Below are positions 1,761-15,288 of a stretch of 64,000 nucleotides of DNA, one piece after another. The notes beneath the pieces are model-generated. The model did not search any database. It had not been told where the DNA came from and saw only the letters and a program-made list of their open reading frames with translations. Position 1 is the first letter of the stretch. Every line of letters starts with the position of its first letter. Position numbers and translations under genes: made by a program. The stretch lies in NCBI GenBank assembly GCA_964434535.1, contig CAYSWA010000007.1, forward strand, positions 8,321 through 72,320, written 5' to 3'. Source of the DNA: an uncultured candidatus Brocadiaceae bacterium (GTDB lineage Bacteria; Planctomycetota; Brocadiia; SM23-32).

Positions 1761-3140
1761 GTGGCCAGAGAGCGCGTCAGCTACGTCTGCGGCGAGTGCG
1801 AGGCGAGCTTCCCCCGCTGGAGCGGGCGCTGCCCGAACTGCCAGGAGTGGGACACCCTCCAGGAGGTCCGCGAGCGGCCCCAGGGCAAGGGCTCCTTCGG
1901 GAAGCCCGCCGCGCGCGCGGGCGTCGCCGCCACGCCGCTGGCCCAGGTCGAGGCCCGGCGGCTAAGCCGCCTCGGCTCCGACATACCCGAGCTGGACCGG
2001 GTGCTCGGCGGCGGCGTGCTGCCCGGCAGCAGCATCCTGCTCGGGGGCGAGCCGGGCATCGGCAAGTCCACGATCCTGCTCCAGGCGCTCGGCAGGATGG
2101 CCGCGCGCGGGGTGCCGTGCCTCTACGTGAGCTGCGAGGAATCGCTGGGCCAGCTCAAGCTGAGGGCCGAGCGGCTGGGCTTGAAGGACTCGGCGCTGCC
2201 CGTGGCTGCCCAGAGCGACCTGGCGAGCATCCTGGGGCTGATCGCCGCCGGCGAGCTGCGCGTCCTCGTGGTCGACTCGATCCAGCGCGTGCACGCCGCC
2301 GAGCTCGACTCGGCCACCGGCAGCCTGCGGCAGGTGAGCACCTGCGCCACCGGGCTGACCGAGACGTGCAAGGAGCGCGCGATCGCCCTTTTCCTTGTGG
2401 GGCACGTCACCAAGCGCGGGCTGATCGCCGGCCCGCGCGCCCTGGAGCACCTGGTGGACACCGTGCTCTACTTCGAGGGCGAGACGGCCGGCGGCGCGGC
2501 GCTGCGCGTGCTGCGGGCCGTGAAGAACCGCTTCGGCCCGGTCAACGAGATCGGCGTCTTCGAGATGCACAGCGAGGGCCTGCGGGAAGTGAGCAACCCC
2601 AGCGCGCTGTTCCTGGCCGAGCGCGACGCCGACGCCGCCGGCTCCGTGGTCACCGCCACGATGGAGGGCAGCCGCGCGCTGCTGGTCGAGGTGCAGGCGC
2701 TGGTCGGGCCCGGCGCCTACGGCACCCCGGAGCGGAAGGCGAGCGGGATCGACTACCGCCGCTTCAGCATGATGCTCTCGGTGCTGGAGCGCCAGGCGGG
2801 CCTCGAGCTGGGCCGCTGCGACGCCTTCGTGAACGTGGCCGGCGGCGTGCGCGTCTACGAGCCGGCGGCCGACCTGCCGCTGCTTCTCGCGCTGGCCTCC
2901 AGCTTCCGCGAGGCCCCGTTCTTCGCCGACGGCGTGGCCGTAGGCGAGGTCGGCCTCGGAGGGGAGGTGCGCGCCGTCGGCCGCATCGAGGACCGGCTGA
3001 GGGAGGCGCGCAAGCTCGGCTTCGAGCGGGCCGTCGTTCCGGTCGGCAACGCCCCGGCCGCGCGGCGCCTGATGGCCGAGGTCCACGCCGTGCGCAGACT
3101 CACAGACGCACTGAGACTTCTCGGGACGCAAGGCCAGTGA
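1761..3140 (+). CDS. radA: DNA repair protein RadA/Sms
   Basis: YVCGECEASFPRWSGRCPNCQEWDT zinc ribbon, Walker A GEPGIGKST, KNRFG motif, and C-terminal Lon-like domain. GTG at 1761 preceded by GGAGAG. The track ORF start at 1650 is an upstream extension. Confidence 0.85.
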   Translation: MARERVSYVCGECEASFPRWSGRCPNCQEWDTLQEVRERPQGKGSFGKPAARAGVAATPLAQVEARRLSRLGSDIPELDRVLGGGVLPGSSILLGGEPGIGKSTILLQALGRMAARGVPCLYVSCEESLGQLKLRAERLGLKDSALPVAAQSDLASILGLIAAGELRVLVVDSIQRVHAAELDSATGSLRQVSTCATGLTETCKERAIALFLVGHVTKRGLIAGPRALEHLVDTVLYFEGETAGGAALRVLRAVKNRFGPVNEIGVFEMHSEGLREVSNPSALFLAERDADAAGSVVTATMEGSRALLVEVQALVGPGAYGTPERKASGIDYRRFSMMLSVLERQAGLELGRCDAFVNVAGGVRVYEPAADLPLLLALASSFREAPFFADGVAVGEVGLGGEVRAVGRIEDRLREARKLGFERAVVPVGNAPAARRLMAEVHAVRRLTDALRLLGTQGQ

Positions 3141-3251
3141 GGGCGTGCAATCGCCGCCCGCCGTTCGCCGTCGCCGTTGTGCCCGTCCTGTCGTCGTGGT
3201 CAGCACTGCCGGTCTCCGTGTCTGCGTGGTGATTCTCCCGCCGCCGCAAGG

Positions 3252-3279
3252 TTGACTTCGGGCGCCTTTCCGGTATCCT
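3252..3279 (+). promoter_or_regulatory. putative promoter TTGACT-N16-TATCCT upstream of lysA
   Basis: Hexamer match in the radA-lysA intergenic region, 36 nt before the TTG start at 3315. Confidence 0.3.
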
Positions 3280-3314
3280 GGGGCCGTTTCGCCGCCCACC
3301 TTTCGGGGGCCATC

Positions 3315-4625
3315 TTGACGGCTGAGAGCCCATTCACGTATCGCGACGGGGAGCTCCACTGCGAGGAGGTGGCGGCCCGCCTGGTGGCGGAGCGCCACGG
3401 CACGCCGTGCTACGTCTACAGCGCGGCCTCGCTGGTGGGCCGCTACCGGCGCATCCGCGACGCCTTCGCCGCCTGGGAACCGCTGGTCTGCTTCTCCGTG
3501 AAGTCCTGCGCCAATCTCTCGGTGCTGCGGCTGCTGGCGGGGGAGGGGAGCGGCTTCGACGTGGTCAGCGGCGGGGAGCTGTACCGCGCCCTGCTCGCGG
3601 GGGCCGACCCCCGGAAGATCGTCTTCGCCGGGGCCGGCAAGACCGAGGCGGAGATCGAGCAGGCCCTCGATGCGGGGATCCTGATGTTCAACGTCGAGTC
3701 GGCGCCCGAGCTGGCGGCGATCGACCGGGCCGCCCGCCGACGCGGCGAGCGGGCGCGGGTGGCGCTGCGCATCAACCCGGACGTGGACCCCGGCACGCAT
3801 GAGAAGACGACGACTGGCAAAGGGGGTACGAAGTTTGGTATAGGTGTGCAGCAGGCCGAGAGGCTGGCGCGCGAGGCCGCCGCGTGGCCGGGCGTCGAGG
3901 TGCGCGGGCTGCACTTCCACCTCGGCTCGCCCATCTACTCGGCGGAGCCCTACGAGCGCGCGCTCCAGGTTCTGCTGCCGCTCGTGGAGCGGCTGCGGGC
4001 GGCCGGGCTCGCCCCGGACACGCTGAACCTGGGCGGCGGCTGGTGCATAAGCTACACCGGCGAGGACGTGCCGGGCCCGGAGCGCTACGCCGAGGCGTTG
4101 CGATCTGGTCTTGAAAAATCGGCCTGTCCGGTTATCATCATTGAGCCGGGCAGGTACATAGCTGGTAACAGCGCCATACTGCTGACGAGGGTCGTTTACC
4201 GCAAGGAATCGCAGTTTGGGAAAACGTTTCTGATCTGCGACGCGGCAATGAACGATCTGATCCGGCCGACGCTTTACGGGGCCTTCCACCGCGTATGGCC
4301 CGTGGAGAGCCCCGACGGCATGCCGGCGGTCATCCAGCCCGAGCGGCAGGCGTTCGAGGGCCGGCAGACCGAGCCGGTCGACGTGGTCGGGCCGGTCTGC
4401 GAGACGGGCGACTTCCTGGCCCGGGGCCGTCCGGTGCCCCGCGTGGAGGCAGGCGGCCTGCTGGCGGTCTTGGACGCCGGGGCGTACGGATTTGTGATGA
4501 GCTCTAACTACAACGGCCGCCCGCGCGCGGCCGAGGTGATGGTGGACGGGGCGCAGTGCCGCCTGATCCGCCGACGCGAGACGTACGACGAGCTCGTTGC
4601 GCCCGAACAGGACCTGCCGGACTGA
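3315..4625 (+). CDS. lysA: diaminopimelate decarboxylase
   Basis: PLP-dependent Orn/DAP/Arg decarboxylase fold: CFSVKSC...FDVVSGGEL, HFHLGS, EPGRYIAGNS, CETGD. A TTG start at 3315 is preferred (GGGGG SD 6 nt upstream). The long upstream extension is implausible. Confidence 0.85.
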   Translation: MTAESPFTYRDGELHCEEVAARLVAERHGTPCYVYSAASLVGRYRRIRDAFAAWEPLVCFSVKSCANLSVLRLLAGEGSGFDVVSGGELYRALLAGADPRKIVFAGAGKTEAEIEQALDAGILMFNVESAPELAAIDRAARRRGERARVALRINPDVDPGTHEKTTTGKGGTKFGIGVQQAERLAREAAAWPGVEVRGLHFHLGSPIYSAEPYERALQVLLPLVERLRAAGLAPDTLNLGGGWCISYTGEDVPGPERYAEALRSGLEKSACPVIIIEPGRYIAGNSAILLTRVVYRKESQFGKTFLICDAAMNDLIRPTLYGAFHRVWPVESPDGMPAVIQPERQAFEGRQTEPVDVVGPVCETGDFLARGRPVPRVEAGGLLAVLDAGAYGFVMSSNYNGRPRAAEVMVDGAQCRLIRRRETYDELVAPEQDLPD

Positions 4626-4719
4626 GCGCCCGGCAGGAGCAGCGGCGTGGCGGGCTGCGGCGCTCGACATGAAGCCGCGAGACTCGCAGAGACGCCAACC
4701 ATACCGTAAGGAGTCACTC

Positions 4720-6966
4720 ATGTGCGGATTCGCTAAGCGGTTGGGGATTGCGCTGGCGCTGACAATGATCTTCCTCGGCGGCGTGGTCGGGCTCGCGAGC
4801 GCCGATCAACAGCAGGAGATCCTCAATGCCTTCAAGCAGGGCATCACGCTCTACAAGGTGGGCGACTTCGCCGGCGCCCGGGAGCGGTTTGACCGGGTGC
4901 TGGCCATGGACCCGGGCATGCAGACCGCGTTGAAGATGCGCGACATGGCCGAGTTCGGCCAGTTCGCCGAGATGAAGGACACCGAGGAGCTCGGCGAGGT
5001 GGCCGAGAAGGTGCTCGACCTGATGACGCGCGCCACCCGCCAGCGGAAGCGCACTCTGGAGGACCCCGCCGCGCTGATCGAGGACTTCGAGTCGCAGGAC
5101 CTGGCCACCTACGGCAAGGCGCGCATCGCGCTGACCGGCCACGGGCCCTACGCCGTGCCGTATGTCGTGCCCCTGCTGGCGCTCGACGTCGAGGAGAGCC
5201 AGACCGTCGTCGCGCGAGCCGTCAGCCTGCTGGCCGATCTCCATCCCGACGCCGTCATGCCCCTGATCGTGGCGCTGGAGAACGCCGGGGACAGCCTGCT
5301 GAAGGCGCGGATCGCCGACGTGCTCGGCCAGATAGGCGACGAGCGGGCGGTGCCCGCCCTGATGATGCTCGCCGGCGATGAAGCCGCCCTTCAGGACGCC
5401 CGCACGGCCGCAATGGAGGCCGTGCGCAGCATCACCGCCAGCGGCCCCGGCCAGCGCGGCTCTGCCACGGCGCAGTACATCGCCCTGGCCGACGCCTACC
5501 TGCGGGAGGACAAGGACAAGGTCGGCTACACCTACGGCCTGACCGCCGAGGTCTGGGACTGGAACCCCGACGGCGAGGAGCTTCCCGACCGGATCGTCTA
5601 CGAACAGGTGCCCAACTACCTCTACTTCCAGCGCATGGCCACGGAGGTGGCCCTGGGCGGGCTCGCCGCCGACCCGGGCGCGACCGAGCTTCAGGCGCTG
5701 CTGGCGGCCTCGCTGGTGCGGCAGCTGGCGCTGTGCGAGTTCTTCAAGTCCGCCGAGGTCCGCCTCGGCGGGCGCGAGATCGAGCAGCAGGTCCGCCAGG
5801 AGGCCGCGCAGCGCGCTGAGGAGCTCTGTGTCCAGGTGCCCGTTGCGCTGCACATGCTCGCCACCCCCGTGGTCGGCCGTGCGCTCCAGCTCACGCTGGA
5901 GCTGGGCGACGGGTCGGCCAGCCTCTACCTGGTCAAGGCCATCGACGCCAAGCTCGCGGCGGCGGGGCCCGGCGCCCTGGACGAACTGACGGCTCAGGCC
6001 CTGGTCTCCGCCCTCGGCTCGGGCGACAAGGACGTGCGCTACAACGCGTCGGTCGTCCTGGTCAGCGCCGCTCCCGACGGCGAAGGGCTGCCGGCCGAGG
6101 AAGTGATGCAGGTCATGGGCGCGGCGCTGAAGGCGGCCTCTGATCGGACGGCGCTGGTGGCGATGGACAACTTCCAGATGCGCAACAAGCTCGTCCACGT
6201 CCTGCGCGGCGCGGGCGTGGCCACCAGCGAGTCAAAGGTGGTCGACGTGCTCATCGAGCACACGCTCTCGATCGAGCCGTCGGTCGACATCGTCTTCCTG
6301 TCCGGCAACCTGCCCGAGCAGAAGTTCGCGCGCATCGTCGCGCTGCTGAAGGGCGACCCGCGCACGAAGGCGGCGCCGCTTTACGTCGTGGTCGACCCGA
6401 CCGAGGAGGCGCCGGAGATGGCCGCGTTCGACCAGATCGAGCAGGTGCTCCGCCCCGACGCGCTCCGCGCCGAGGCCCTCGCGCCGATCCTGCAGGAGCA
6501 GGTCTTCGCCCGGAGCCGCTCGGCCTTCACCGACGAGGAGCAGGCCCTGGTGCTGAAGGCCGCCGAGGCGCTCGACGAGGTCGACCCGCTGGCCACCGCA
6601 TACCCGCTGGTCATGGTCGAGCCGGCGCTGGTCAAGGCGCTCAGGGGCTACGGTGAAGAAGTCTCCGCCGCCGCCGCCGAGGCGTTGGCCGGGTTCGGCT
6701 CGCCGGGCAGCGCCGCGCCGCTGGCGGGGCTGGTCGCGTCCGACGCTTCACAGGACCTGCGCGTGGCCGCCTGCAAGGCGCTCGCGGCCGTTCTGAAGCG
6801 GAGCGATGCGCCGGCCGGCGAGGACGTGGTGGCCGTGCTGAAGGCCGGGCTCGACGCGGACGCGCAGCCTCTGAGGCAGGTCGCCGCCGAGGCGCTGGGC
6901 GCGGCCGGGCTCGGCGCCGAGGCGCAGATGACGCTGCTGCGCACGAAGGCGCTCGGGCTGGAGTAG
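4720..6966 (+). CDS. secreted HEAT/PBS-lyase-like repeat protein
   Basis: ATG at 4720 with a perfect AAGGAG SD. Signal peptide MCGFAKRLGIALALTMIFLGGVVGLASA. Repeated ...ALG.IGD.RAVP.L..LL.D.. and DVRYNASVVL HEAT-like units. Confidence 0.65.
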   Translation: MCGFAKRLGIALALTMIFLGGVVGLASADQQQEILNAFKQGITLYKVGDFAGARERFDRVLAMDPGMQTALKMRDMAEFGQFAEMKDTEELGEVAEKVLDLMTRATRQRKRTLEDPAALIEDFESQDLATYGKARIALTGHGPYAVPYVVPLLALDVEESQTVVARAVSLLADLHPDAVMPLIVALENAGDSLLKARIADVLGQIGDERAVPALMMLAGDEAALQDARTAAMEAVRSITASGPGQRGSATAQYIALADAYLREDKDKVGYTYGLTAEVWDWNPDGEELPDRIVYEQVPNYLYFQRMATEVALGGLAADPGATELQALLAASLVRQLALCEFFKSAEVRLGGREIEQQVRQEAAQRAEELCVQVPVALHMLATPVVGRALQLTLELGDGSASLYLVKAIDAKLAAAGPGALDELTAQALVSALGSGDKDVRYNASVVLVSAAPDGEGLPAEEVMQVMGAALKAASDRTALVAMDNFQMRNKLVHVLRGAGVATSESKVVDVLIEHTLSIEPSVDIVFLSGNLPEQKFARIVALLKGDPRTKAAPLYVVVDPTEEAPEMAAFDQIEQVLRPDALRAEALAPILQEQVFARSRSAFTDEEQALVLKAAEALDEVDPLATAYPLVMVEPALVKALRGYGEEVSAAAAEALAGFGSPGSAAPLAGLVASDASQDLRVAACKALAAVLKRSDAPAGEDVVAVLKAGLDADAQPLRQVAAEALGAAGLGAEAQMTLLRTKALGLE

Positions 6967-7045
6967 GCAAGCCGGACCGGGCTTTCTCGGGGCGGCCGGA
7001 GTCGCCTGGCTCCGCGCCGCCCTTTCTTCATCGCGGGGGCTCGTC

Positions 7046-7897
7046 ATGCTGAAGTCATTGAGCATCTGGTGCCTGCCGGACAACGAGACGCGGCCGGCCG
7101 GGGAGATGTTCGACCAGGTGCGGGAGCGCGGGTTCGACGCCGTCGAGCTGGCCATCGGAGAGGCCGGCCTCGTCACCCTCCAGAGCACCGAGGAGGAGTG
7201 CCGCGCCCTCGGGCAGCTCGCCGCAGAGCGCGGCCTCCAGACGCCGACCGTGGCCAGCGGGCTCGGCTGGAAGTATCCGCTCACGGCCGACGAGCCCGAG
7301 GCCCGCGACCACGCGGCCGAGGTAATCCGCCGCAGCCTCCGCGCCGCCTCGTGGCTCGGCGCCGAGGTGCTGCTGGTCGTGCCGGGGACGCTGGCGCCTC
7401 CGGGGGCCGACTCCGCGTTCCACGTGCCTTACGACGTGGCCTACGAGCGCATGCGGGAGGGCGTCGGCCGGCTCGTCCCCACGGCCGAGGAGACCGGCGT
7501 CGCGATGGGCATCGAGAACGTGTGGAACCGCGTGCTGCTCTCGCCGCTGGAGATGCGCGACTTCATCGACTCGTTCGGCTCCGACGCGGTGGGGGCCTAC
7601 TTCGACGCGGGCAACGTGATCGTGACCGGCTACGCGGAGGACTGGGTGCGGATACTGGGCGCGCGCATCGGCGCCGTGCACTTCAAGGACTTCCGCCGCG
7701 CCGTCGGCACCTTGGAGGGCTTCTGCGACCTGCTCGAAGGCGACGTGGACTACCCCGCCGTGATGACCGCCCTCCGCGAAGCGGGCTATGACGGGGCGTG
7801 CACGGCGGAGTACTTTGGACTGGGCGAGGCGGCCCTGGCGAAGCTGAGCGCGGCCATGGATCGCATCCTCGCCATGCAGGACGCCGCCGGTCAGTAG
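7046..7897 (+). CDS. sugar phosphate isomerase/epimerase (xylose isomerase-like TIM barrel)
   Basis: FDAVELA, GLQTPTV, NVIVTGYAEDWVR and HFKDF motifs typical of the AP-endonuclease-2 / xylose-isomerase-like family. Confidence 0.75.
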   Translation: MLKSLSIWCLPDNETRPAGEMFDQVRERGFDAVELAIGEAGLVTLQSTEEECRALGQLAAERGLQTPTVASGLGWKYPLTADEPEARDHAAEVIRRSLRAASWLGAEVLLVVPGTLAPPGADSAFHVPYDVAYERMREGVGRLVPTAEETGVAMGIENVWNRVLLSPLEMRDFIDSFGSDAVGAYFDAGNVIVTGYAEDWVRILGARIGAVHFKDFRRAVGTLEGFCDLLEGDVDYPAVMTALREAGYDGACTAEYFGLGEAALAKLSAAMDRILAMQDAAGQ

Positions 7898-9051
7898 CGC
7901 AAGAGCGCGGCGACATCGTAGCCGTCGCCGGGCATCTCTTCCTGCTCCACGGCGTAGACCGCGCCCCTGTGCACGAGGACCTGCGCGGCGGCCTGGTCGA
8001 GCAGGTCCTCGTCGCCGACCTCCCCCTCCGCGTGCTCGGTCACCGCGTCCGAATCCGCGTCGTAGCTGCCCCAGCGGTGGACCCCGAGCGCCACGAAGAG
8101 GGTGTCGACGCGCCCGTGGTGGGCCGCCGGGACGGCTTGCTTCAGCTCCGTGGAGGCGCGCTCCGTCCCGAGCGCGGCCTCGAGGAACCCGGCCGCCTCG
8201 CGCTGGGCCTGCATGAAGACCGGCTCGACGATCGGCCAGGCCCTGTCGTGCAGCTCCTGCTCATTGAGCCTATCGGGATTGCCGCGGACGGCGTGCTCGA
8301 CCAGGTGCGGGTAGGAGTTCGCCTTCCGGTAGATCGGCAGCATGCTCTCGGCGCCGGCGAGCACAAGCGGCGCCTGCTGCCCGCCGAGTGCTTCGTGCAG
8401 GGCGGCGTCGATCTGGCGGAAGTACTCGCGGATGCGGTCCTGCTCGTCGTCCTTGGGCACGCCCTGCCCGTGGAAGATGGCGGCGCCCGTGCCGCCGCCG
8501 CGGGTCTGGCCGGTCCCCGTGTGGAACTGCAAGTGCTTCTCGCGCACGTCGAAGCGGAGCGCCTCGGCGAGGCTGGCGGGCATGCCGCGCACGTCCAGGT
8601 GCCGCACGCTCCAGTGCGTGCCCTCCAGCACGCGCACGGCGTTCTGGCTCAGCGCCAGGATGTAGAAGCGGCCGTCCCGGCTGAAGAACGGCAGCAGCGG
8701 CTTGATGTGGAAGTGCTCGCCGACCGCCGATAGCTGCTCGACCTCCAGGGGGAGGCGGTAGCTGGAGAACAGGCCGGGCGCCACGAAGGCCGCCAGCCCG
8801 TCCGCCTGCTGCTGCCAGAAGTCGGAGTCCTCCAGCAGCTCCCGGGCCGGCGCGAGGAACTGCTCCACCTCGCGGCGCTGCATGCCCCGCCCCTCCAGGG
8901 CGTCGCGGGCGGCGTAGAGCGCGTTTTTGAACCGGATCGGGTTCTGGCGCGTCTGGCTGCCCGCCCGCTCGGTGGGGATGTAGAGCGAGACGCACAGTCC
9001 CCCGTGCGCGTCGATGAGTTTCTCCAGCGCTTCCCCGGTCAGCAGTGCCAT
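7891..9051 (-). CDS. conserved hypothetical protein (possible eRF1-fold / Vms1-like family)
   Basis: 386-aa ORF with good coding composition. The N-terminus LCVSLYIPTERAG...NPIRFKNALYAARDAL resembles bacterial eRF1-like (baeRF/Vms1-like) proteins, but this is recalled by eye only. Confidence 0.5.
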   Translation of the reverse strand: MALLTGEALEKLIDAHGGLCVSLYIPTERAGSQTRQNPIRFKNALYAARDALEGRGMQRREVEQFLAPARELLEDSDFWQQQADGLAAFVAPGLFSSYRLPLEVEQLSAVGEHFHIKPLLPFFSRDGRFYILALSQNAVRVLEGTHWSVRHLDVRGMPASLAEALRFDVREKHLQFHTGTGQTRGGGTGAAIFHGQGVPKDDEQDRIREYFRQIDAALHEALGGQQAPLVLAGAESMLPIYRKANSYPHLVEHAVRGNPDRLNEQELHDRAWPIVEPVFMQAQREAAGFLEAALGTERASTELKQAVPAAHHGRVDTLFVALGVHRWGSYDADSDAVTEHAEGEVGDEDLLDQAAAQVLVHRGAVYAVEQEEMPGDGYDVAALLRY

Positions 9052-9182
9052 CGTTGCGCGTCCCCTCAGCTCGTGTGGATCGGAATCCGGCGGCCGGTGC
9101 CCCCATGGGCCGCCTGCCTTCTATCCTGCATACTACCCGACAACGGTTCTGCTGTCATCAGGACGCCCACGGAAGGCGCGCC

Positions 9183-9211
9183 TTGACGGCCGGGCGCCGC
9201 CGTGGTAGAAG
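9183..9211 (+). promoter_or_regulatory. promoter TTGACG-N17-TAGAAG driving the riboswitch leader
   Basis: TTGACG 9183-9188, 17-nt spacer, TAGAAG 9206-9211. It lies immediately 5' of the riboswitch P1 stem. The same architecture recurs at other promoters in this window. Confidence 0.45.
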
Positions 9212-9392
9212 GGAGGTGTCGGCGGGTGGCCCGAAGGGGCCACGGGAAAACGGTGAGAATCCGTTGCGGACCCGCCGCTGTAACCGGTAGCCGGAGCCCG
9301 TCAGCAAGGCCACTGTCCCCCGCGCCGGGGGATGGGAAGGCGGGGCGAGCGGCGACGACCGGGAGCCAGAAGACCGACCCGCCGACGATGAG
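9212..9392 (+). promoter_or_regulatory. cobalamin (AdoCbl) riboswitch
   Basis: Conserved blocks GGTGAGAATCCG (9252-9263), B12-box GCCACTG (9309-9315), GGGAAGGCGGGG (9334-9345) and GAGCCAGAAGACC (9363-9375). P1 pairs GTCGGCGGG (9218-9226) with CCCGCCGAC (9378-9386). Confidence 0.85.
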
Positions 9393-9584
9393 TGCTGCGG
9401 ACCTTCGGGCTTGAGCGAAGCGGCACGCGAGACGGCGGAAGTCTGCCTGTCGACCGTGGCCCGCGCCCGATCTCTGCGGCGTCGGGCCGCGTTGCTGTAC
9501 GGCGCCGGCGCCCGGAGGGAGGCGGCGGTGCGGTCAGAGCGCATCGTCTCGGCGTGCCCGCACACGATGCAGGAGGGCCGGACG

Positions 9585-10328
9585 ATGCGGCGTCGCAGGG
9601 CTTTCACGCTCGTCGAACTGCTTGTCGTGATGGCGATCCTGGCCATCTTAAGCGGCCTGATCATGCCGGCCGTCAACGAGGCGCGCCTCGAGGCCAGGGC
9701 CACGAGCTGCCGCAACCGACTGCGGCAGATCGGGTTCGCCACCGAGATGCACACCACCGACCACGGCGGACACCTGCCCGACGCCGGCGACTACACCGGG
9801 CGCCAGTTCTTCGGCCATTACGGCGGGCCCGCCGAGTACGTGGACTTCGGGGAGGGGTTCCTCTCCTCCTACGTCGGCAACGACCGGGATGTCTGGCAGT
9901 GCCCGTCCTTCACGGACTTCTTCCCCCGCGCCCTCGGCCCCTGCACCGGCTACGGCTACAACTACCACTACCTGACGGAGCTGGTCGAGGAGGGCAACTG
10001 GTGGGACCCCGACTACAAGTACTGGTGGAAGGGCCTGCCGGAGGGGAGAATCCGCAAGACCACAAGAACGGTGCTGTTCGGCGACTCCGCCCGCAACTGG
10101 ATGGGGCCGCTTGAGGAGAACTGGTTCTGGACGCCGCCGTCGCAGGCGCTCGCCTGGCCCGGATGGGAGACCGCCTACGCCCACTTCCGCCACCGGCTGA
10201 AGCTGAACGTCGTCTGGGCCGACGGGCACGTCAGCACGCTGCGTCCGGATCCCATCTTCCCGCTCGACCATGACCTGCTCGGCTACATCTGCGACACCTC
10301 GGACGTCTACTTCGATCCGGAGCAGTAG
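9585..10328 (+). CDS. DUF1559 / prepilin-type N-terminal cleavage-methylation domain protein (type II pseudopilin-like)
   Basis: ATG 9585 with AGGAGG 9 nt upstream. N-terminus [22 protein letters not shown] is a class III signal / pilin N-methylation motif. C-terminal WADGHVS is the DUF1559 H-X9-G-type motif. Confidence 0.8.
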
Positions 10329-10350
10329 CGAGCGTCCCGAACTGCGTTGG

Positions 10351-10437
10351 TGGTCCCTGACACTTGAGATTATGGGCCGTGGTTCGGTGGCACGGGCTTC
10401 CAGCCCGTGAATCATGGCCAGGATGGCCATGCCACAC
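10351..10437 (+). repeat. structured dispersed repeat, copy A (three-way hairpin element)
   Basis: A 51-nt block TGGTCCCTGACACTTGAGATTATGGGCCGTGGTTCGGTGGCACGGGCTTCC and a terminal GGCCATGCCACACT are shared, in inverted orientation, with 52066-52160. Internal hairpins are CACGGGCT/AGCCCGTG and CATGGCCA/TGGCCATG. Confidence 0.7.
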
Positions 10438-10490
10438 TAAGACGGCCACCGGTAGAATCAAAACTCACAGGTCACCAGGAGGGCTCGGCC

Positions 10491-10901
10491 GTGGCCTATC
10501 GCCGCAGGAAGGTCGTCGCCGTCGTGCTGTTCGCCGGGGCGGCGCTGGGGCTGGCCGGCTTCGGCTTGCTGCGCGGGGGACGCTACGAACAGAGGGGCGC
10601 CGGGCCCGCATCGGAACAAGCGCGGGCCGCCCTGGAGGTGATCCACGCGCTGGCCCGAGAGCCCGAGAGCGTCGCCGACCATCTGCACCCGACCGCCACG
10701 CGGCTGGCGCAGGGAGCCGTAGAGAAGGCCGCCGAGCTGCTCCACAAGGCCGAATCCTACCGCCTGAAAGACGCTGAGTGGTTCGGCGAGTACCTGCGCG
10801 TCGGCGTTCTCTGCGTCCTGAAAGACGGGCGCGAGATGGAACGCTACTTCCTGTTCAGGGAGGAGGGCGGACAGCTCCTCGTCACCGGCCTCCAGCAGTA
10901 G
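10491..10901 (+). CDS. hypothetical membrane-anchored (periplasmic) protein
   Basis: GTG 10491 preceded by AGGAGG and a TAGAAT -10-like hexamer (10452-10457). Hydrophobic N-terminal helix VVAVVLFAGAALGLAGFGLL. No recognisable domain. Confidence 0.5.
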   Translation: MAYRRRKVVAVVLFAGAALGLAGFGLLRGGRYEQRGAGPASEQARAALEVIHALAREPESVADHLHPTATRLAQGAVEKAAELLHKAESYRLKDAEWFGEYLRVGVLCVLKDGREMERYFLFREEGGQLLVTGLQQ

Positions 10902-10936
10902 GGCCGTCCCCTGCTTCCACCGAAACGGGCTTGCAC

Positions 10937-11860
10937 GTGAGCGACGCAGCCGCCAAAGCGCTGATCGCAGCGGTCGCGTTCGCCGTCGGTCTCGGCCTGT
11001 CGATGTGGCTGCTGCGTCTGCCGATGCCGGGCGCCGGTGAGGGCCCGAGCGCGAGCTCGGGGGGCTATCGCTACGGGCGGGTCATCTGCATGTCGCCCGC
11101 CACCGCCGAGATCGCCTTCGCCCTCGGGGCCGGCGGGCGCGTGGTGGGCGTCAGCGAGTACACGCAGTACCCGCCCGAGGCGCTCCAGAAGCCGACCTGC
11201 GGAGGGTTCTTCAACCCCAACTACGAGCTGATCCTCGCCCTGCGGCCGGACCTGCTGCTCACCCAGGGCCGCGCGGCGGAGCTGGAGCGCTTCGCCCGCG
11301 AGAACGGGCTCGCCTTCGGCTCGGTCGAACTGACCGACCTCTCGTCCATCTTCGCCGCCGTCGAGCGGATCGGCGCGCTATTGGAGGCGCAGGAACGGGC
11401 GGCCGACCTCGTCGCCCACATGGGCGAGCGGCTGGCGGCGGTGCGGGCGCGCGTGGCGGGCCGGCAGCCGGCCTCCGTCCTGCTGGTCAGCGGTCGTGAG
11501 CCCGGCTCGCTGACCGGGGTCCACGCGGTCGGGCCGGGCACCTTCCTGCACGACCTGGTCGGCGTCGCGGGCGGGCGGAACGTCTTCGGCGACATGGAGC
11601 GCTCCTACGCGGCCGTCAGCAAGGAGGCGATCCTGGAACGGGCGCCCAAAGTCGTCATCGAGCTGCACGGCGAGGGAGGCGACGCGCGCGAGCTGAACCG
11701 GCGCGTGCGGGCGCTCTGGGGCGCAATGCAGCCGCTGCCGGCGGTGCAGGCCGGCCGCGTCCACGCCATCGAGGCCACCTACGCGATGGTGCCCGGCCCG
11801 CGGGTCGTGCGGCTGGCGGAGCGCCTGGGCGAGCTGCTGCATCCGGAGGCCGGGCCATGA
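10937..11860 (+). CDS. btuF: ABC transporter periplasmic substrate-binding protein, BtuF/FecB (cluster A-II) family
   Basis: RVICMSPATAEIAFALGAGGRVVGVSEYTQYPPEA...LRPDLLL matches the BtuF N-lobe pattern. It lies downstream of the cobalamin riboswitch. Confidence 0.75.
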   Translation: MSDAAAKALIAAVAFAVGLGLSMWLLRLPMPGAGEGPSASSGGYRYGRVICMSPATAEIAFALGAGGRVVGVSEYTQYPPEALQKPTCGGFFNPNYELILALRPDLLLTQGRAAELERFARENGLAFGSVELTDLSSIFAAVERIGALLEAQERAADLVAHMGERLAAVRARVAGRQPASVLLVSGREPGSLTGVHAVGPGTFLHDLVGVAGGRNVFGDMERSYAAVSKEAILERAPKVVIELHGEGGDARELNRRVRALWGAMQPLPAVQAGRVHAIEATYAMVPGPRVVRLAERLGELLHPEAGP

Positions 11861-12663
11861 CCGAGCCGCTGCTGGCGCTGCGCGACTGCCGCTTCCGCTA
11901 CGAGGAGGCCGGCTTCAGGCTGCGCGACGTCTCGCTGGAGGTCGGGGCCGGCAGCGTCGTCGGAGTGGTCGGCCCGAACGGGTCGGGCAAGAGCACGCTG
12001 CTGCGGCTGGCGGCCGGGCTGCTCCGCCCGGACGCGGGCGAGGCGCTCATCGGGGGCCATCGGGCCCACGAGCTGGGGCGGCGGCGGGTGGCGCGGATGC
12101 TCGCCTTCCTGCCCCAGCAGACGCGGGCGGCCTTCGGCTTCACCGCCCGGCAGGTCGTCGAGATGGGCCGCTTCCCCCACCAGCGGGGGCTCGGTTTCAT
12201 GGGCGCCGCCGACGTGCGCGCCGTGCGCACTGCGCTGGAGCGCACGGGGTCGGGCGGGCTCGCCGACCGGCGGTTCTCCACGCTCTCAGGCGGCGAGAAG
12301 CAGCGGGTGCTCATTGCCAGCATCCTGGCCCAGGAGCCGTCGGTGATGCTGCTGGACGAGCCGGCCGCCGCCCTCGACGTGCACCACCAGGCCGAGGTGC
12401 TCGACCTGCTGTGGGACCTCTCGCGCACCGGCATCGCCGTGCTGCTGGTCACGCATGACCTCAACGCGGCGGCCCGCTTCTGCGAGCGGCTCGTCCTGCT
12501 CTGCGAGGGGGCCGTGGCCCGCGCCGGGACGCCGGACCAGGTGCTGGAGCAGGAGCTGCTCGCGGAGGTCTACGGGGCCGACGTGCGCGTCTGCCGCAAC
12601 CCCGTCACGGGCACGCCGATGGTCACCGTGCCCGGAAGGAGGGCCCATGCCGCGCGCGAGTGA
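11857..12663 (+). CDS. btuD: ABC transporter ATP-binding protein (BtuD/FecE-like)
   Basis: Walker A GPNGSGKST, signature LSGGEKQRV, Walker B MLLDEPAAALD. Overlaps the upstream gene by 4 nt. Confidence 0.85.
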   Translation: MTEPLLALRDCRFRYEEAGFRLRDVSLEVGAGSVVGVVGPNGSGKSTLLRLAAGLLRPDAGEALIGGHRAHELGRRRVARMLAFLPQQTRAAFGFTARQVVEMGRFPHQRGLGFMGAADVRAVRTALERTGSGGLADRRFSTLSGGEKQRVLIASILAQEPSVMLLDEPAAALDVHHQAEVLDLLWDLSRTGIAVLLVTHDLNAAARFCERLVLLCEGAVARAGTPDQVLEQELLAEVYGADVRVCRNPVTGTPMVTVPGRRAHAARE

Positions 12664-13672
12664 GCACCTGACGCCGGTGCGCTTCGGGGGCACGGTCGGC
12701 CTGGCGGCGCTCGCCTGGGCAGCGGCGGGGCTGGTATGCCTCTTCTACGGTCAGGCCGACGTGCCGGCGGCGCGCATCCTATCGGTCCTCTCCGGCGCGG
12801 GGGGCGGCCCGCAGGAGGCCAACATCGTGCTGATGCAGCGGCTGCCGCGCGTGCTGCTGGCACTGCTGGCCGGCGGCGGGCTGGCGATGACGGGCGCGGT
12901 CTTCCAGGCGATGCTGCGCAATCCCCTCGCCACTCCGCACATCCTCGGTGTCTCGGCCGGCGGGGCGCTCGGGGCGGTCCTGGCCATATCGGCCGGCCTC
13001 GCCGGGCCGGGGCTCGGGCCGTTCCGGCCGGTGCAGCTCTTCGCGCTGGCGGGTGCTCTGGCGAACGTGACCGTCATCTACCTGCTGGCGCGGCGGCGGG
13101 AGGTCTTCTCGCCTCTGAAGCTGCTGCTGGCCGGCGTGACGCTCGGGCTGATCTGCTCGGCGCTGATCATGTTCGTGCGGTTCGTCTCCGAGCCGACGAA
13201 GCTGGTGATGGTCGACCGCTGGCTGATGGGCGGGCTCGACGTGCACGGGTTCCGCAGCGTGGCGGCGGTGCTGCCGCTGCTGCTGCCGGCGGGGGCGCTG
13301 CTGATGAGCGAGGCCGGCGCGCTGAACCAGCTCGCGTTGGGGGAGGAGCTGGCGGCCGGCCGGGGCGTGAACGTGGCCGGGGTGCAGGTCGAGGCGTTCG
13401 TTGCGGGCTCGGTGCTGACGGCCGTGGTGGTCTCGGTGGCCGGGCCGATCGGGTTCGTCGGGCTGATCGTGCCGCACGCGCTGCGGGGCATCTTCGGCCC
13501 CGACCACCGGCTGCTTCTGCCGCTGAGCTTCTTCGGGGGCGGTGCGTTCCTGGCGGCGGCGGACACGGTGGCGCGTTCGGCCTTCGCCCCTTCCGAGCTG
13601 CCGGTGGGGGTGCTGACGGCGATGCTCGGCGGCCCGTTCTTCCTGGCGCTGCTGGTCACGCGCGCCCGGTAG
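12647..13672 (+). CDS. btuC: ABC transporter permease, FecCD/BtuC family
   Basis: ATG 12647 with GGAAGGAGG upstream. About 10 TM helices with FecCD-family motifs (ILGVSAGGALGAVLAI, GPIGFVGLIVPH). Confidence 0.8.
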   Translation: MPRASEHLTPVRFGGTVGLAALAWAAAGLVCLFYGQADVPAARILSVLSGAGGGPQEANIVLMQRLPRVLLALLAGGGLAMTGAVFQAMLRNPLATPHILGVSAGGALGAVLAISAGLAGPGLGPFRPVQLFALAGALANVTVIYLLARRREVFSPLKLLLAGVTLGLICSALIMFVRFVSEPTKLVMVDRWLMGGLDVHGFRSVAAVLPLLLPAGALLMSEAGALNQLALGEELAAGRGVNVAGVQVEAFVAGSVLTAVVVSVAGPIGFVGLIVPHALRGIFGPDHRLLLPLSFFGGGAFLAAADTVARSAFAPSELPVGVLTAMLGGPFFLALLVTRAR

Positions 13673-13677
13673 CGGCT

Positions 13678-15288
<1,611 letters not shown>

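Follow-up and report, generated by a model that had tools for sequence, protein, structure and literature searches.

The window, a stretch of 64,000 nucleotides analysed as a whole, carries a unit of five genes on the forward strand (9585–13672) that ends against a convergent pyrG gene and is preceded by a long intergenic leader. The genes are arranged as follows.

9585–10328, forward strand: gene 1, a pseudopilin-like DUF1559/H-X9-DG protein of 247 amino acids with a prepilin N-terminus
10491–10901, forward strand: gene 2, a protein of 136 amino acids, the length also given in the NCBI annotation, with an NTF2-like domain behind a predicted membrane anchor
10937–11860, forward strand: gene 3, a BtuF-like periplasmic binding protein (PF01497, E 8.2e-26)
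11857–12663, forward strand: gene 4, a BtuD-like ABC ATPase of the corrinoid/heme type (PF00005)
12647–13672, forward strand: gene 5, a permease of the FecCD/BtuC type (PF01032, E 7.1e-85)
13678–15288, reverse strand: pyrG, convergent, which bounds the operon

The intergenic gap upstream of gene 1 extends from 9052 to 9584, between a divergent gene on the reverse strand (7891–9051) and the first downstream start codon, the ATG at 9585, and its length of 533 nt is that given in an earlier note on this DNA. The divergent gene encodes a bacterial aeRF1-like (baeRF) protein, which NCBIfam names as a ribosome hibernation factor family with a score below the cut-off, and a sigma-70-like site, ATGACA-N17-TAGTAT, lies on the reverse strand at 9130–9158 in the shared intergenic region. 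The leader of the five-gene unit contains the following elements.

9183–9188, forward strand: −35 box TTGACG, read from the sequence, at a position conserved in relatives
9206–9211, forward strand: −10 box TAGAAG, separated from the −35 box by 17 nt and aligned with the TATAnn of relatives
9207–9396, forward strand: Cobalamin riboswitch aptamer, matching the full-length RF00174 model
9217–9227 with 9377–9387, forward strand: P1 helix of 11 pairs, 10 Watson-Crick and one G-U
9252–9263, forward strand: core block GGTGAGAATCCG, read from the sequence
9271–9274, forward strand: L5, CCCG, within the aptamer
9309–9315, forward strand: B12 box GCCACTG, read from the sequence and aligned to GCCACUG of RF00174
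9334–9345, forward strand: core block GGGAAGGCGGGG, read from the sequence
9363–9375, forward strand: core block GAGCCAGAAGACC, read from the sequence
9392–9426, forward strand: near-invariant hairpin directly 3′ of P1, kept in 13 of 13 leaders
9406–9409, forward strand: CGGG loop of that hairpin, candidate L13 and kissing partner of L5
9431–9438, forward strand: P1-alternative segment GACGGCGG (GGCGG type), a possible pairing partner of the P1 3′ strand
9455–9491, forward strand, with a degenerate U-tract to 9503: terminator-like hairpin (−26.4 kcal/mol, z −4.09)
9540–9589, forward strand: hairpin over the AUG and Shine-Dalgarno (SD) region (−31.5 kcal/mol, z −3.37)

The identity of the aptamer was established by an Rfam cmscan run over the entire window, which placed RF00174 at 9207–9396 on the forward strand with 85.9 bits (E 8.8e-20) against a gathering score of 31.5 bits. 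The match covers model positions 1–189 of 189 and is thus not truncated. The earlier note had proposed a cobalamin riboswitch here from the letters alone, and the covariance model upholds that proposal, with P1 and the B12 box in place. The hallmark blocks that it quoted are all present, and GGUGAGAAUCC and GGGAAGGC align to their RF00174 consensus blocks in the cmscan alignment. RF00174 was the sole match, with no other Rfam family above its gathering score in the 64 kb, which agrees with the view that this is the only clear cis-regulatory RNA in the window. The P1 helix exists as described, except that it comprises 11 pairs and not 9 bp.

To place the leader among its relatives, we compared 13 distinct leaders found via orthologs of gene 1 that are 59–63% identical to the window protein. 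In this alignment 93.8% of the P1 cells are paired, compared with 36–50% when the partners are slid by 1–3 columns, and compensatory (two-sided) changes occur at 4 of the 11 pairs. Comparative sequence analysis thereby confirms that 9207–9396 is a genuine, textbook-type Cobalamin-family riboswitch with its own conserved promoter. By the same evidence it is an ordinary member of RF00174, an already-known kind of RNA. The full-length match includes the peripheral extension, which suggests to us that the aptamer is of the adenosylcobalamin (AdoCbl) type. Known Cobalamin riboswitches include the E. coli btuB leader and the AdoCbl riboswitch of Thermoanaerobacter tengcongensis. With the RF00174 riboswitches the window RNA shares the B12 box, the GGUGAGAAUCC loop (L4 by our reading of the consensus), P1 and a position 5′ of B12 import genes, but it differs from them in its long platform (~190 nt) with three successive conserved or stable hairpins, and in the loss of the terminator U-tract.

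The promoter was compared among the 12 leaders that possess upstream DNA, anchored on P1. At the −35 position TTGAC or TTGAT (TTGCGC in one) is found at 12 of 12 related loci. The common layout consists of TTGAC/T, a spacer of 17–18 nt and a TATAnn box (TATAAG, TATAGT, TATACA and similar) ending 6–8 nt before P1, and the flanks are unconserved. The TAGAAG of the window aligns with the TATAAG of related loci L002, L038 and L047. A strict consensus promoter scan of the window did not list TTGACG-N17-TAGAAG, since the last T of the consensus is missing from the −10 box. Despite this miss, the promoter named in the earlier note lies at the same distance from P1 as in 12 of 12 relatives, and this phylogenetic footprint, a position kept across 12 loci, supports TTGACG-N17-TAGAAG as the predicted riboswitch promoter. 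From its position, transcription should start at approximately 9217–9219, the foot (first base) of P1.

Between the end of the RF00174 match and the ATG lie 188 nt, so the expression platform of ~190 nt described previously is right in length, but it is more structured than that description allowed, the terminator-like hairpin and the hairpin with the CGGG loop having been overlooked. Across the 13 aligned leaders the platform measures 171–272 nt (the start codon could not be placed in L006 and L034) and follows a common modular layout of hairpin, P1-alternative segment, terminator-like hairpin and AUG/SD hairpin. In the three aligned platform helices, 90.5% of the cells are paired compared with 38–55% for slid partners, and the covariation score of the platform was reached by 0 of 500 shuffles. 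The stability of the whole platform in its minimum free energy (MFE) fold showed no excess over shuffles (z −1.21). MFE folding of the whole leader was set aside as uninformative in this 71% GC RNA, where the full-leader MFE structure disrupts the aptamer.

The first module, the hairpin at 9392–9426, carries compensatory changes in its stem among the 13 leaders and has an ordinary stability (z −0.37), so that its conservation lies in sequence and not in stability. Its CGGG loop is complementary to the CCCG of L5 in 13 of 13 leaders and is a candidate L13 of an L5–L13 kissing loop, an architecture seen in characterised cobalamin riboswitches. Both partners are invariant, and for this reason covariation lends the pairing no support. 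The second module can form a P1-alternative helix that appears in the MFE fold of the window and in the consensus fold (helix 19–24/70–75). Its cells are paired in 86.5% of cases with no double-sided changes in the aligned register, and compensating variants in L006 and L034 are apparent by eye only.

The third module, the terminator-like hairpin, has stem homologues in the leader alignment with three pairs showing compensatory change. In most relatives the stem is followed by a U-tract of the UUUUUUGUUG type, and in related locus L038 the same hairpin was listed by the scan as a canonical terminator; the L037 and L038 leaders have the tract intact. In the window only 4 of the 12 nt of the tail, UUGCUGUACGGC, are U, and the intrinsic-terminator scan listed nothing at 9455–9503. 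By this comparison, the U-tract of the window is decayed relative to those of its relatives. A second copy of the terminator 5′ strand is located downstream, at 9511–9529 in the window, and likewise in L038 (~3306–3344), L039, L042 and L034, which gives the terminator 3′ strand an alternative downstream partner. An SD-like sequence, GGAGGGAGG, is also present at 9515–9523 of the window, and the two could be parts of a second, translational switch.

The last module encloses the start of gene 1. Folding pairs the AUG (9585–9587) with 9542–9544, with a probability of being unpaired of ~0, and the same hairpin pairs four G's of the SD region. The SD itself, AGGAGG, is located at 9571–9576, one base off the 9570–9575 given before. 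The earlier suggestion that an anti-SD helix might form here therefore holds for the AUG and the four G's, with the SD only partly buried. The hairpin folds with or without the aptamer in the RNA. Pyrimidine anti-SD tracts are visible by inspection in several relatives.

On this evidence, the leader is very probably a promoter-driven Cobalamin OFF switch that controls a five-gene corrinoid-acquisition operon. The transcript would start at about the foot of P1 from the sigma-70-type promoter. With B12 bound, P1 and the L5–L13 kissing loop (CCCG 9271–9274 with CGGG 9406–9409) would lock, and the 9455–9491 hairpin would form and attenuate transcription. Any read-through mRNA would be poorly translated, with the start codon and part of the SD hidden in the 9540–9589 hairpin. 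At low B12, 9431–9438 would capture the 3′ strand of P1, favouring read-through. Alternatively, the free CGGG loop could pair with the 5′ strand of the terminator, GCCCG, and so allow read-through. This 5′ strand resembles L5, and the 3′ strand, UCGGGC, resembles the CGGG loop.

Neither pairing was retained as a general antiterminator. For the terminator 5′ strand, the upstream segment that pairs best is the CGGG loop in only 8 of the 13 leaders, and this pairing is kept as a hypothesis only. The P1-alternative helix was dropped from this role because the consensus fold allows it to coexist with the terminator, and the thermodynamic model does not reveal how ligand binding would be coupled to termination. 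Since the U-tract has decayed in a genome of 71% GC, termination may be weak here and translational control dominant.

A purely translational switch, in which B12 governs access to the SD and AUG only and 9455–9491 is a structural spacer, would account for the missing U-tract in the window, for the strong hairpin that hides the AUG and part of the SD, and for the anti-SD tracts of relatives, such as CCUCCCC facing GGGGAGG in L003 and L004. We nevertheless consider it unlikely, as compensatory changes preserve the 9455–9491 hairpin and most relatives have a clear U-tract after it, the AUG/SD hairpin folds whatever the state of the aptamer, and no conserved ligand-dependent anti-anti-SD element was found in the leaders. 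The converse reading, purely transcriptional attenuation, holds that 9455–9491 terminates when B12 is bound and that the SD/AUG hairpin is a by-product of GC-rich sequence. Conservation of the terminator stem and of its U-tract in relatives fits this reading, as does the z of −4.09 for the window hairpin, yet UUGCUGUACGGC makes a poor U-tract, all leaders retain a further 80–150 nt with SD-pairing potential, and the SD/AUG hairpin itself reaches a z of −3.37; it is improbable that attenuation is the whole of the mechanism. A constitutive operon behind a decayed aptamer that no longer functions is hardly credible: the degenerate U-tract and the non-consensus −10 box are all that speak for it, against a full-length 85.9-bit match with all conserved blocks intact, a P1 maintained through compensatory change relative to the other leaders, and a promoter, aptamer and platform conserved across the 13 leaders, where gene 1 is 59–63% identical to that of the window. 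The OFF switch with both layers of control is accordingly the reading that we carry forward. The conserved leaders can also be read as a natural series, in which rising genomic GC is accompanied by loss of the U-tract from a terminator-type platform.

The three distal genes encode, by Pfam, the gene set of a BtuFCD importer together: Peripla_BP_2 (gene 3, whose start was taken from the gene called in related locus L083), an ABC ATPase (gene 4) and a FecCD permease (gene 5). Their best NCBIfam matches are B12/corrinoid models, all below the cut-offs, so that identity at the equivalog level was not reached for BtuF, BtuC or BtuD. Gene 3 scores 83.6 bits with the BtuF equivalog (cut-off 234), gene 4 scores 267.8 bits with the corrinoid ABC transporter ATPase, and gene 5 matches the BtuC models best. 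The B12 specificity of genes 3–5 is inferred because the riboswitch precedes the operon. No btuB-type receptor gene is present in the operon. With BtuF-, BtuD- and BtuC-like genes downstream on the same strand, the claim of the earlier note that the riboswitch defines a B12-responsive unit stands.

The unexpected part of the operon, on which the earlier note makes no comment, lies ahead of the importer, where the first two genes encode a pilin-like protein and a predicted membrane-anchored pocket protein. Gene 1 carries a prepilin motif (PF07963, 35.2 bits with a cut-off of 21.2; TIGR02532, 28.4 bits with a cut-off of 16.3) including the E+5 residue, and residues F7, T8, L9 and E11 are invariant across the orthologs. 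Position −1 is Ala in the window (RRRA|FTLVELL) and Gly or Ala across the family, with many Gly; efficient processing by a prepilin peptidase is not certain for gene 1 because Ala, not Gly, precedes the predicted cleavage site. The match to PF07596 (24.3 bits, cut-off 23.3) covers profile positions 2–35 of 268 only, and that to TIGR04294 (15.9 bits) is below the 19-bit cut-off, with the H-x9-DG motif visible in the alignment. The fold consists of a long N-terminal helix packed on a β-sheet head and qualifies as that of a pilin; ~110 of the 247 residues superpose on pilins, and the head is enlarged.

No Pfam or NCBIfam family was found for gene 2 (ORF2), and a search with the single sequence returned only itself, so that an alignment query was required to find relatives. 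Its hydrophobic N-terminal segment is interpreted from the sequence as a membrane anchor. The NTF2-like domain was modelled with confidence as an α+β cone with three helices on a curved antiparallel sheet, and according to this model gene 2 is a small membrane-anchored pocket protein of the NTF2-like type.

To assess how far genes 1 and 2 occur together, we examined the distribution of gene 1 and its neighbours. The search returned 6790 DUF1559 hits overall, indicating a very large paralogous family, within which the gene-1 subfamily forms 59 clusters at 249–558 bits, with the next matches, among generic DUF1559 proteins, at ≤169 bits. The subfamily alignment contains 35 invariant columns, many of them Trp; W104, W139, W180, W194, H200, H203, H215 and C236 are among the invariant residues. 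We classified 76 loci, 20 of the Planctomycetota/Brocadiia type, some of which are duplicates of each other, and 56 of the Verrucomicrobiota type. In the Planctomycetota/Brocadiia type, a Cobalamin riboswitch lies upstream at 16/16 loci with at least 450 nt of upstream DNA, gene 2 follows gene 1 at 16/16 loci, and btuF-btuD-btuC is found at 9/9. One such relative, L003, has cobU, cobT (DBI_PRT) and cobS inserted between ORF2 and btuF (6126–8486), and the same insertion in L004, L014 and L029 brings corrinoid salvage and remodelling genes into the riboswitch operon. In the Verrucomicrobiota type no riboswitch was found at any of the 56 loci, and ORF2 follows gene 1 at 50 of 53. There the pair is adjoined upstream by metH at ~49 loci and followed by DUF6580 (PF20221) at 48/48, as in the example locus L032 (6306–11788; metH, the gene-1/ORF2 pair, DUF6580). 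The gaps between metH and the pair range from a few to ~40 nt, and the genes sometimes overlap (L007–L028, L032, L045–L081). The product of metH is the B12-dependent methionine synthase. Genes 1 and 2 thus appear to be an invariant pair across the 76 classified loci where the DNA allows a judgement.

Because the pair occurs in two different B12 contexts in two phyla, we argue from gene neighbourhood that it acts in corrinoid acquisition or trafficking. These are two independent genomic signals that tie one DUF1559 subfamily to B12, namely the riboswitch with btuFDC and cob salvage genes on the one hand, and metH with DUF6580 on the other. As a tentative step beyond this, one which we hold to be possible but somewhat short of an even chance, the pair may constitute a previously unrecognised corrinoid-acquisition module, in which pilin-anchored or pseudopilus-borne B12 capture and hand-off would take place in the periplasm or outer envelope, feeding BtuFCD in Planctomycetota/Brocadiia and DUF6580, as a new B12 permease, in Verrucomicrobiota.

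The alternative is that genes 1 and 2 are passengers with an envelope function unrelated to B12, linked to btuFDC only through a common transcript. Pfam, NCBIfam and structure comparison revealed neither a B12-binding motif nor homology to a known binder in either, and DUF1559 has very many paralogs (6790 hits), both of which would sit well with passengers. We nonetheless regard such a role as unlikely, given that an invariant pair is tied to B12 genes in two phyla via different partners: the riboswitch (16/16) and btuFDC (9/9), with or without cobUTS, in one, as against metH (49) and DUF6580 (48/48) in the other. A divergent gene-1 paralog that likewise lies behind a Cobalamin riboswitch also counts against it.

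This paralog is a DUF1559/H-X9-DG protein of 41% identity at locus L082 (357–1284), with a Cobalamin riboswitch (90.1 bits, a local match) ~40 nt upstream, which points to B12 regulation in more than one lineage of DUF1559. The same locus has a tRNA gene at 86–170 on the opposite strand.

The proposed module has a functional parallel in BtuG and BtuH of Bacteroides. These accessory proteins, which are not transporters, are encoded in B12 uptake loci under riboswitch control and capture corrinoids beyond the inner membrane. By analogy, genes 1 and 2 may have the same role. They differ from BtuG/BtuH in that no relationship of sequence or fold was found, gene 1 having a pilin fold and gene 2 an NTF2-like one, and in that the operon is without btuB. 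Compared with type II secretion system (T2SS) pseudopilins, type IV pilins and the DUF1559/H-X9-DG family of Planctomycetota, Verrucomicrobiota and relatives, gene 1 stands apart as a member of a distinct, tightly conserved subfamily, and its locus is a B12 operon, not one for secretion or pili. Its pilin-type N-terminus, in a product encoded alongside an ABC importer, has a precedent in the Sulfolobus bindosome, where ABC importers are served by substrate-binding proteins (SBPs) bearing class III pilin-type signal peptides (PMC3047682). That system is archaeal and uses classical SBP folds, whereas in the window the SBP is a separate BtuF-like protein and gene 1 is without an SBP fold.

The riboswitch alone would be routine annotation, and the value of the locus lies in the functional label that it places on an uncharacterised pilin-like/NTF2-like pair. 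It provides a concrete ligand hypothesis for the pair that is approachable with purified domains. In Planctomycetota and Verrucomicrobiota few paralogous families are as large as that of the DUF1559/H-X9-DG pilin-like proteins, and we know of no member to which a function has been assigned; if the hypothesis is true, corrinoids would, to our knowledge, be the first ligand for this very large family. A full-text literature search of incomplete coverage returned no link of DUF1559, pseudopilins, H-X9-DG or DUF6580 to cobalamin, and the B12 link of the pilin-like pair appears to be unreported in the literature searched.

The neighbourhood also nominates DUF6580, an uncharacterised membrane protein, as a candidate B12 permease in the abundant marine Verrucomicrobiota, because it follows the pair in 48/48 loci. 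No sequence relative of DUF6580 was found in the PDB with either a single sequence or a profile; it has no NCBIfam name, and it is absent from the supplements of the S-component-fold paper. It might be BtuM-like.

Upstream of the operon, the neighbourhood is partly syntenic between the window (~2000–9051) and two distant relatives, L034 (1–9425) and L036 (4987–9556). An Orn/DAP decarboxylase and a HEAT-repeat protein are shared with both, and a xylose-isomerase-like TIM barrel is found in L036. This partial synteny with distant relatives indicates that the operon is probably chromosomal and vertically inherited, and not mobile.
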